Assembly (NCBI GenBank): GCA_000004985.1
Contig: GG739303.1
Direction: 5' to 3' (one strand)
DNA length: 1,921 nucleotides
Source: Naegleria gruberi
Lineage: Eukaryota
In this document: positions 481-1,921 of the stretch, piece by piece
Layout of the letters: every line of letters starts with the position of its first letter
Position numbering within the stretch: position 1 is the first letter of the stretch
Position numbers and translations under genes: made by a program
The notes under the pieces: generated by a model
Databases searched by the model: none
Seen by the model: the letters and a program-made list of their open reading frames with translations, nothing else
What the model was told of the DNA's origin: nothing

Positions 481-538
481 ATGCATAAATTACATGATAA
501 AGAATATAGTATTAAATGTTCTATAATGGGTGGAGTTG
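481..538 (+). CDS. Ras-family small GTPase, exon 1: MHKLHDKEYSIKCSIMGGV + first base of the next Gly codon. ATG at 481-483 sits 7 codons upstream of the Ras-like N-terminal 'KEY'. The exon ends in a GTATGT donor at 539-544.
   Basis: Aligns to the Ras/Rap N-terminus + P-loop 'TEYKLVVVGAGGVGKS'. The reading continues across the intron as GGVG|KTSIVFQ. There is an A at -3 of the ATG. The in-frame ORF upstream (298-480) is K/N/Y/F-rich and looks like junk. Confidence 0.7.
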
Positions 539-578
539 GTATGTTGTACCAAATTTAAATTATTAAATTACAAATTAG
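539..578 (+). other. Spliceosomal intron 1 (40 nt, phase 1), GTATGT...TAG.
   Basis: A canonical GTATGT donor follows the Gly codon. An AG lies at 577-578. Removing it joins g538+gt579-580 = GGT (Gly) and continues 'KTSIVFQ', which matches Ras 'KSALTIQ'. Inference from in-frame homology across the junction. Confidence 0.75.
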
Positions 579-704
579 GTAAAACATCAATTGTGTTTCA
601 ATTTTTTAGAAATATGTTATGCTATGATCTATCATGTGTAGATGATTATGCGAAATATATACTAGTTGATGAAAATACATTTAGAATAGAAATATTTGAT
701 ACAG
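579..704 (+). CDS. Ras-family GTPase, exon 2 (126 nt): (G)KTSIVFQFFRNMLCYDLSCVDDYAKYILVDENTFRIEIFDT + g.
   Basis: Matches Ras '[44 protein letters not shown]'. Switch I is 'YDLSCVDDY' (Ser in the Thr35 position) and the G3 motif begins with 'DT'. The exon ends at a GTTAGT donor (705-710). Reading through the donor hits TAG/TGA stops. Confidence 0.8.
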
Positions 705-760
705 GTTAGTATTTAAATAGTTTACAATTTTTTATTAATTATATTAAATATTGAAAATAG
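705..760 (+). other. Spliceosomal intron 2 (56 nt, phase 1), GTTAGT...AATAG. A second in-frame AG lies 9 nt downstream (768-769).
   Basis: Needed to join 'IFDT' to the '..AEEYSTLR' switch II segment. An in-frame TAG (709-711 in the exon frame) means read-through is not possible. Confidence 0.7.
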
Positions 761-790
761 ATGCGGCAGAGGAATATTCAACATTGAGAG
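761..790 (+). CDS. Ras-family GTPase, exon 3: a 30-nt micro-exon that encodes switch II, (D)AAEEYSTLR + g.
   Basis: With g704 the protein reads 'DT D A A E E Y S T L R', against Ras 'DT A G Q E E Y S A M R'. It is flanked by an AG at 759-760 and a GTAAGT donor at 791-796. Confidence 0.7.
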
Positions 791-832
791 GTAAGTCAAT
801 ATATTTTATTATTATATATCTAATATACATAG
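791..832 (+). other. Spliceosomal intron 3 (42 nt, phase 1), GTAAGT...CATAG, with a CTAAT branch-like motif about 11 nt upstream of the AG.
   Basis: Consensus donor GTAAGT. Removing it joins aga g|at caa = 'R D Q C', against Ras 'MRDQYMR'. The intron is a multiple of 3 long and open, which is why the six-frame track shows one ORF running through it. Confidence 0.8.
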
Positions 833-1047
833 ATCAATGTATTCGATCCAGTAAATGTTTTATACTTGTTTGTGATGTATTTGATTTCAAGTCAATTAAC
901 AGTTTAAAATTTATGATCGAACAAATATTAAATATTAAAGAATCAAATGACATTCCAATTGTATTTACATTAAATAAGATTGATTTAATTAATAATAATA
1001 ATTTGGAGGAAATGGTTGAAAAATTAAAAATGAAATTAATATTAATT
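833..1047 (+). CDS. Ras-family GTPase, exon 4: (D)QCIRSSKCFILVCDVFDFKSINSLKFMIEQILNIKESNDIPIVFTLNKIDLINNNNLEEMVEKLKMKLILI. In this frame it stops at TAA 1048-1050. The true 3' end of the exon is unresolved (see findings).
   Basis: Matches Ras '[53 protein letters not shown]'. The G4 NKxD motif is 'NKID'. A poly-Asn insertion follows. Confidence 0.7.
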
Positions 1048-1265
1048 TAATTGAATATTATCAATTAATAAATACTAAAATAGTAACATCATGTGCTATA
1101 AAAGGAGATGGTGTTGAAAATATATTTGAGGAAGGAATCAGGTTAACAAGATTTGAAAACCAAACTGATTTAAAATTGCTATTTAAAGAAATTATTCAAA
1201 AAGATGTAAAATATTTAAAATCCACAACAACAAATATTAGAGAACATAAATGTTTGACCATGTGA
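1020..1265 (+). CDS. Ras-family GTPase, terminal coding segment in frame 0: KIKNEININLIEYYQLINTKIVTSCAIKGDGVENIFEEGIRLTRFENQTDLKLLFKEIIQKDVKYLKSTTTNIREHKCLTM*. It carries the G5 motif and the CaaX box. The stop is TGA 1263-1265. The real 5' boundary of this segment is unknown and overlaps the frame-1 exon.
   Basis: 'YYQLINTKIVTSCAIKGDGVENIF' matches Ras '[21 protein letters not shown]'. The C-terminus 'CLTM' is a CaaX prenylation box immediately followed by a stop. This frame is open back to TGA 1017-1019. Confidence 0.7.
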   Translation, partial: KIKNEININLIEYYQLINTKIVTSCAIKGDGVENIFEEGIRLTRFENQTDLKLLFKEIIQKDVKYLKSTTTNIREHKCLTM

Positions 1266-1384: not shown

Positions 1385-1921
1385 ATGAAACGAACTTTGG
1401 ATTCAGTGCTGGACATGGTTGAGTGTAATGAAGATACTCAACAACACCAGCATTCCGAATGTTTGGGAAACATAAACAAGAAGAAACTGCAAGAAGTAAC
1501 AATTCGCAACTTTCCTACTGTTGCAAATATTTACAATATCACATACAAAGTAATGGATTACAACGTGTTTTATGAATCGAGAGGTAAAACTCTTCTATCA
1601 TGCACAATTAATAATGTGGTCTGCATTGTCAAAAGAGTGAAGCAACATGAAGGAGTAAAATCAATTTTGAGTTTATATTTACCTAGTGATAATCCAGATT
1701 ATTGCTTCACACTGAAAGGAACATGTTTGGGAACAATGTTTAGGAATGGGCAAGTTGACCAAATTGACATTTTTCAATTTGTGAAAGATTTACTTGGCAC
1801 ACTTGTATTATTGGAAAGAGGAAATATTACACACAATGATATCAAACCAGATAATATTGTCCTATATGATGGACATTGGTTTCTTATAGATTATGAACTG
1901 TCAAAGTCATTCAAACTGAAA
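1385..1921 (+). CDS. Protein-kinase-like domain protein, 5'-partial (179 codons, open to the window end): MKRTLDSVLDMVECNEDTQQHQHSECLGNINKKKLQEVTIRNFPTVANIYNITYKVMDYNVFYESRGKTLLSCTINNVVCIVKRVKQHEGVKSILSLYLPSDNPDYCFTLKGTCLGTMFRNGQVDQIDIFQFVKDLLGTLVLLERGNITHNDIKPDNIVLYDGHWFLIDYELSKSFKLK...
   Basis: The ORF is open from ATG 1385 to the last base, and 1385-1921 is exactly 179 codons. The catalytic loop 'HNDIKPDNIVL' matches the ePK 'HRDLKPxNILL'. 'LIDYELS' is where DFG would be, 17 residues later, which is correct ePK spacing. The first in-frame stop upstream is TAG 1313-1315, and there is no ATG between it and 1385. Not in the supplied ORF track because it has no stop within the window. Confidence 0.8.
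   Translation, partial: MKRTLDSVLDMVECNEDTQQHQHSECLGNINKKKLQEVTIRNFPTVANIYNITYKVMDYNVFYESRGKTLLSCTINNVVCIVKRVKQHEGVKSILSLYLPSDNPDYCFTLKGTCLGTMFRNGQVDQIDIFQFVKDLLGTLVLLERGNITHNDIKPDNIVLYDGHWFLIDYELSKSFKLK

Follow-up and report, generated by a model that had tools for sequence, protein, structure and literature searches.

A frame-interrupted Ras-family gene with an F-box-like N-terminus on an orphan scaffold of Naegleria gruberi

The window analysed here is an entire orphan scaffold of 1,921 base pairs (bp) from Naegleria gruberi NEG-M, and it carries a Ras-family gene from an amoeba-specific expansion. Judged by its sequence, the gene is best described as a 325-codon frame interrupted at two runs of A, and it appears to be a lineage-specific N. 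gruberi paralog within a heterolobosean (Naegleria, Willaertia) clade. In the architecture predicted for that clade, a helical linker connects an F-box-like helix bundle at the N-terminus to a Ras G domain, which is followed by a C-terminal helix and a CxxM farnesylation box. On balance we favour the view that this copy is a young pseudogene, recently formed through birth-and-death turnover of an expanded family. The locus is already known and catalogued. It has been deposited since 2010 (gene NAEGRDRAFT_76969; protein XP_002668120.1 / EFC35376.1, labelled 'predicted protein' of N. gruberi NEG-M in GenBank/RefSeq), and it was curated in 2021, when Herman et al. (PMC8296547, Supplementary Material 4, Table S8) placed XP_002668120.1 in the category 'Ras' and altered its model by hand. 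A literature search found the locus named in the main text of no paper.

Family membership and the interrupted frame

A preliminary description of this DNA had proposed a member of the Ras superfamily, and profile searches confirmed that identity. The plus-strand coding region within 481–1265 matches the Pfam Ras profile (PF00071) at 71.9 bits (E = 5.8e-20), and human K-, H- and N-Ras are its best matches among solved structures (E ~1e-19), so that both a Ras-family profile and a Ras-like fold are found. When 1.84 billion representative proteins were searched exhaustively with HMMER, the top match was the deposited protein of 143 amino acids, 98% identical to the query. The next-best matches were proteins of 310–366 amino acids from N. 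gruberi, N. lovaniensis, Willaertia magna and environmental contigs, and no relative among the 1.84 billion exceeded 51% identity. These relatives align with the repaired window protein, in which both frame breaks are mended, from residue ~18 to the C-terminus. They are characterized by an LPxEIxxxILSY N-terminal motif, an FNxFWW linker, a KR..LL helix, the Ras domain, an extra C-terminal helix and a KKCxxM box. After frame repair, the window gene has the N-terminal motif, the linker, the KR..LL helix, the C-terminal helix and CxxM, and it aligns end to end with a family hidden Markov model (HMM) that was built without the window sequence.

Naegleria proteins of the Ras family proper carry an F-box-like N-terminal module, as seen at 150–360 of the window and in the N-termini of the family. 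Six of 17 family N-termini match the Pfam F-box-like profile PF12937 at E ≤ 0.01 (best 2.1e-6), and F-box families were the only families matched; the window copy's own N-terminus gave no Pfam match. A profile of the N-termini searched against the PDB returned F-box proteins in all of the top seven places, each as a weak match (E 0.065–0.84). The closest paralog is XP_002673837.1, which shares 49–51% amino acid identity and 66–70% DNA identity with the window gene and for which Herman et al. 2021 (PMC8296547) give a corrected model in Table S8. It has the same F-box-like N-terminus, FNEFY linker, Ras domain, C-terminal helix and CaaX box. The paralog and its environmental relative also share with the window gene three intron positions, Ser in place of Thr35 (T35S) and a very low G+C content. 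By contrast, XP_002673837.1 runs in one continuous frame, with the P-loop GDGGVGKS, DT-YGQ-EEY (G60 and Q61 retained) and SAK in G5, whereas in the window gene the frame shifts twice, the P-loop is short or altered, and the motifs read DAA and SCAIK.

G1–G4 are read in frame 1, which ends at the TAA at 1048–1050, and G5 and the CaaX box (SCAIK, CLTM) lie in frame 3, where the open stretch begins only at 1020. The sole AG within 1020–1100 (1082–1083) is in the wrong phase, and therefore no intron can connect frames 1 and 3; any phase-1 donor would moreover remove NKID. Reassignment of stop codons of the ciliate type, a candidate because of the A+T-rich sequence and its final TGA, was also rejected, as frame 1 with TAA and TAG read as sense gives no Ras-like sequence, and it is frame 3 that gives G5. 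Upstream, the N-terminal part in frame 3 reaches frame 1 only across an A7 run at 288–294 (site 1), where one A fewer joins the two as ...ICKKLMYSKY...; left unrepaired, frame 3 from ATG 150 meets a TGA at 318–320 after 56 codons. XP_002673837.1 is continuous across this site (CKKLMYDDD...YFNEFYF), and the alignment of the repaired reading with the family HMM passes across it. At site 2, an A5 run at 1026–1030, the window gene is one base short of the family frame (paralog AAATTGAAAAATGAAATT, window AAATT-AAAAATGAAATT), and the repaired KLKNEININ matches KLKNEIINI of XP_002673837.1, which reads straight through. Each shift amounts to a single base in an A-run, one of them +1 and the other −1, and together they split the 325-codon frame predicted from the family, with premature stops at 318–320 and 1048–1050.

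Consistent with this description, the repaired 325-residue reading scores 258 bits with the family HMM, compared with 133 for the 143-residue RefSeq model and 181 for the manual model of 2021, and both public models are contradicted by the family profile. The RefSeq model (XP_002668120.1) starts at ATG 481, uses three introns and the first acceptor for exon 3, and ends ...KLKMKLILI at the premature TAA, so that translation from ATG 481 yields 143 amino acids without G5 and the CaaX box. The curated model instead places a 28-nucleotide 'intron' at 300–327 (ICKKIN|DFFNEF), which we rejected because it would cut out residues with counterparts in the paralog (LMY...C..). It also translates through intron 3 (GKSIYFIIIYLIYI), and it falls 77 bits below the frameshift-repaired reading.

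The segments of the gene, all on the plus strand, can be laid out as follows. The first coding segment (150–294, frame 3) opens at ATG 150 with MRKGNNN..., ends ...ICKK and holds the F-box-like N-terminal region, including LPYEIHCHLLSY at 210–245, which aligns with the N-termini of paralogs of ~330 residues. The predicted gene start is accordingly ATG 150 and not 481; the extent of 481–1265 given by the preliminary description was accurate for the GTPase part. The second segment (295–538, frame 1) contains the linker, with FNEFYWNLF at 334–360 and KRIVLLTLY at 442–468, the annotated ATG 481, strand beta-1 and, from 523, the first half of the P-loop. Intron 1 (539–578, 40 nucleotides, GTATGT..TTAG, phase 1) lies within the Gly15 codon of the P-loop, and its removal restores GGVGKT. 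Exon 2 (579–704) encodes GKT, helix alpha-1, switch I (YDLSCVDDY, 623–649), strands beta-2 and beta-3, D57-T58 and the first base of codon 59. It is followed by intron 2 (705–760, 56 nucleotides, GTTAGT..ATAG, 10.7% G+C), by exon 3, a 30-nucleotide micro-exon (761–790) encoding switch II as (D)AAEEYSTLR, and by intron 3 (791–832, 42 nucleotides, GTAAGT..ATAG). Exon 4 begins in frame 1 (833–1030: DQCIRSS..., NKID at 973–984, ...EEMVEKLK, then TAA 1048–1050) and continues in frame 3 (1031–1265) with SCAIK (1089–1103), the family-specific C-terminal helix, CLTM (1251–1262) and TGA 1263–1265.

All three intron positions are common to the window gene and its closest paralog, as judged from L001 and L002, genomic contigs of a near-identical environmental strain that carry the environmental relative of XP_002673837.1. 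Intron 1 is matched in L001 at ..ATAAG|GCAAATCA, introns 2 and 3 lie at matching positions there, and the paralog's micro-exon is of equal size, (Y)GQEEYSAMR, giving DT-YGQ-EEYSAMR. The Joint Genome Institute (JGI) model of XP_002673837.1 omitted this 30-nucleotide micro-exon entirely. In L001 at 256–338, and in the same way in L002, the intron that corresponds to intron 3 is a tandem pair of 41 and 40 nucleotides, both starting GTAAGTTG and separated only by GG. Splicing this pair in one step shifts the frame; because the frame (…EEYSAMRDQYMR…) is kept only if both introns go, a 2-nucleotide micro-exon or recursive splicing is implied.

Nucleotide-binding and switch motifs

The motif-by-motif reading of the preliminary description was borne out in an ungapped alignment with H-Ras, in which IMGGVGKT stands for GAGGVGKS, YDLSCVDDY for YDPTIEDSY (T35S) and DTDAAEEY for DTAGQEEY (A59D, G60A, Q61A), followed by NKID, SCAIK and CLTM before TGA. 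The P-loop reading, with Ile-Met for G10-A11, holds only in that alignment: the family HMM places the segment as IKCSIMG--GVGKT and favours a two-residue deletion with G10 kept over G10I/A11M. When the P-loop was repaired in silico, restoring two residues gained 12.8 bits with the family HMM and changing Ile to Gly gained 7.3 bits. The Walker A motif GxxxxGK[ST] is absent from the window copy (S-I-M-G-G-V-G-K-T) and present in all 22 relatives, all of which also have Gly at position 10 with normal spacing, so that of 23 family members only the window copy has this lesion. With the Walker A spacing broken under either alignment, canonical nucleotide binding by the window copy seems doubtful.

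At G2, the Ser at the Thr35 position keeps the hydroxyl, and the same T35S is found in the intact closest paralog. At G4, NKID agrees with the NKxD that is almost universal in relatives. At G3, DxxG and Gln61 are lost (D-T-D-A-A), and no alternative splice rescues them. The acceptor at 768–769, which would give DTEEY, deletes three residues present in every relative and scores 9.5 bits below the first acceptor, so that of the two junctions considered in the preliminary description the first, giving DAA, is the homologous one and the second finds no support. A junction or micro-exon restoring DTAGQ was looked for and rejected, as the 56 nucleotides of intron 2 have no such coding potential.

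Across the clade, the G3 motif is variable. Q61 is kept in 4 of 22 relatives, with Pro the commonest replacement (Q61P in the intact paralog XP_002673033.1, for example), and G60 is absent in about eight. Along window residues 170–177, the clade usually reads DTAGPEE[FY], and G60 is missing from roughly one member in three, some of them apparently intact. Conservation across this Naegleria/Willaertia F-box-like Ras clade is retained in the P-loop, NKxD and the CaaX box. On this comparison DAA is one more variant of a loosely constrained motif and not peculiar to the window gene. Codons 59–61 (761–769) read GAT GCG GCA in the window and TAT GGA CAA in the paralog, differing at five of nine bases, and the codons of the adjoining EEY are nearly identical. 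Five differences in nine are too many for a short neutral period, and we infer that DAA is older than any inactivation; a compensated frameshift, that is, an insertion and deletion pair, could also have produced the pattern at these codons.

A dead copy or a mis-sequenced gene

Three discrete lesions argue for a young pseudogene. Two one-nucleotide changes disrupt a frame that reads through in intact relatives, and the in-frame P-loop deletion together with both homopolymer shifts all point towards loss of function. The 'decaying paralog' that the preliminary description had offered as an alternative is thus the reading favoured by the frame breaks and the unique P-loop lesion. Its argument for a maintained gene, from an intact CaaX box and open exons, fails because the CaaX box, G5 and the N-terminal domain are out of frame with G1–G4; the segments are indeed open far beyond chance (48, 81, 41, 65 and 78 stop-free codons against a random stop probability of 0.106 per codon), but in no single reading frame. 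Nor does its preferred description of a nucleotide-binding but hydrolysis-deficient GTPase fit well, given the doubtful binding and a loss of G60 and Q61 that is common in the clade.

In the pseudogene scenario, the G3 changes would date from a time when selection still acted on the gene, given that loss of G60 and Q61 is tolerated in the clade overall; the P-loop lesion and two frameshifts would be recent disabling events. A CaaX box with Met at X leads to farnesylation. Intact members of the clade probably act as farnesylated Ras-like modules with slow or no intrinsic hydrolysis and are probably tied through the F-box-like domain to ubiquitin ligases of the Skp1–Cul1–F-box (SCF) type. The window copy would no longer act as such a module, and such a protein cannot be made from the sequence as assembled. 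A link to ubiquitination has been proposed for other Naegleria F-box-GTPases by Herman et al. 2021 (PMC8296547), who also report birth-and-death turnover in Naegleria GTPase expansions and flag several members of this clade as putative pseudogenes.

Several observations weigh against a pseudogene. XP_002668120.1 itself carries no pseudogene flag in that survey. Once the two shifts are set aside, the 325 codons contain no internal stop, and this absence caps neutral drift at ~42–55 substitutions, or ~5%, so that any decay would be recent, at most about 5%. Canonical GT..AG sites are retained in each of the three introns. In leave-one-out HMM scoring, the repaired protein ranks 10th of 23, with 3 of 24 departures at conserved columns. 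Its third-position G+C (GC3) is shared with the intact paralog (0.17 versus 0.14); we therefore rejected low G+C as evidence of decay. Finally, both shifts fall within homopolymers, and on a very small, low-coverage orphan scaffold from Sanger sequencing it is plausible that these were called wrongly.

These points lead to the strongest competitor, to which we give a real but less than even chance: that the gene is intact in the organism and that both frameshifts are assembly or base-calling errors. The product would be a 325-residue F-box-like/Ras/CaaX protein with a shortened P-loop and without G60 and Q61, farnesylated and pseudoGTPase-like, either free of nucleotide or locked, and would probably serve as a membrane-anchored adaptor. 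In essence this is what the preliminary description preferred, carried over to the whole protein. The explanation needs two independent errors within 978 coding bases, and the Walker A lesion, unique among the 23 family members, is not a simple base-call error. The collections searched yielded no second sequence of the locus. A functional pseudoGTPase is possible only if both frameshifts are errors. In that event, N. gruberi might express a natural F-box-like/Ras pseudoGTPase of 325 residues that is farnesylated and serves as a nucleotide-independent, membrane-anchored SCF adaptor, a proposal we make tentatively and consider rather unlikely. Also to be entertained with reserve is the corollary that this protein, its P-loop two residues short and its G60 and Q61 gone, would be an extreme case within a clade that usually has Pro at position 61.

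Much less probable is that the annotated 143-residue product (ATG 481 to TAA 1050, G1–G4 only) is a real functional protein. It is the GenBank/RefSeq model and uses three introns supported by homology, but unlike all relatives it has no strand beta-6, helix alpha-5, G5 guanine-contact loop or lipid anchor, scores 133 bits against 258 for the repaired reading, and leaves both the conserved frame-3 continuation and the frame-3 N-terminus unexplained. Programmed recoding, by ribosomal frameshifting or transcriptional slippage at the A-runs in which both shifts lie, is hardly credible: the shifts are opposite (+1, −1), the runs comprise only 7 and 5 A, a check for the slippery motif alone showed no canonical X XXY YYZ heptamer, the intact paralog is read through both sites unaided, and to our knowledge none of this kind is established in Naegleria.

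Setting of the locus and comparison with known systems

The G+C content of the window is ~20% up to about position 1300 and ~33% beyond. The downstream part holds the 5' part of a protein-kinase-like open reading frame (ORF; 1385–1921, plus strand) that starts at ATG 1385, contains an HNDIKPDN catalytic loop and is cut off by the end of the scaffold. This ORF, at 33% G+C compared with 23% for the Ras gene, matches Pfam Pkinase at 24.6 bits (E = 2e-5), below the 31.7-bit cut-off, and reads D-Y-E where DFG is expected. No synteny was found between it and the kinases beside the paralog. An origin from a giant virus or phage was considered and rejected, as nothing in phage records or IMG/VR matched the window. 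An exact-string scan of metagenome contigs and exact-product look-ups (window ORFs and the products P0001, which is the deposited protein, and P0153) gave no match. A word-indexed protein search returned nothing with the single sequence and little with a profile, and Rfam, transfer RNA and repeat scans of the window yielded only A+T-rich chance repeats. No one-to-one partner in N. fowleri is listed by Herman et al. 2021 (PMC8296547).

For the locus itself these results mean very little; it is catalogued already and is probably a dead copy. In the Ras-proper proteins of the clade, an F-box-like N-terminus and a CaaX box occur together with habitual loss of the catalytic Gln, mostly as Q61P. The clade offers a reasonable entry point into GTPase-linked ubiquitination in amoeboflagellates, and here the interest lies with the intact paralogs and not with the window copy.

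Relative to human H-, K- and N-Ras (and to M-Ras by fold), the window gene differs by an N-terminal extension of ~115 residues and an extra C-terminal helix, and also by the broken Walker A spacing, T35S, A59D, G60A, Q61A and the interrupted frame. Ras proteins that lack the catalytic Gln and the Gly of switch II neither hydrolyse GTP nor undergo the switch II movement. The same two residues are lost in Ras G60A and Q61 mutants, Rnd/RhoH proteins and the pseudoGTPase domains of p190RhoGAP, and the KRas chain that is the best sequence match in the PDB itself reads DTAGAEEY, with Ala for Gln61. However, these GTPase-deficient relatives are intact, expressed and mostly equipped with a functional P-loop, unlike the window gene with its damaged P-loop and broken ORF.

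The closest parallels in architecture are fusions of an F-box-type module to a Ras-superfamily G domain, as described in Naegleria for Rab-like, Rho, Ran and G-alpha domains (Herman et al. 2021, PMC8296547). The window gene differs from these in that its G domain is of the Ras family proper and is followed by a CaaX box, and the 2021 supplement lists no F-box for Ras-family entries and notes no extra domain for XP_002668120.1. TbFRP of trypanosomes, a FYVE-F-box-GTPase, shares the fusion of F-box-type module and G domain with the clade of the window gene; it has in addition a FYVE domain, its G domain is Rab18-like, and no Naegleria ortholog of it was found (PMC3593210). By analogy with such proteins, the joining of an F-box-type module to a G domain suggests a role in GTPase-linked ubiquitination or in rapid turnover.

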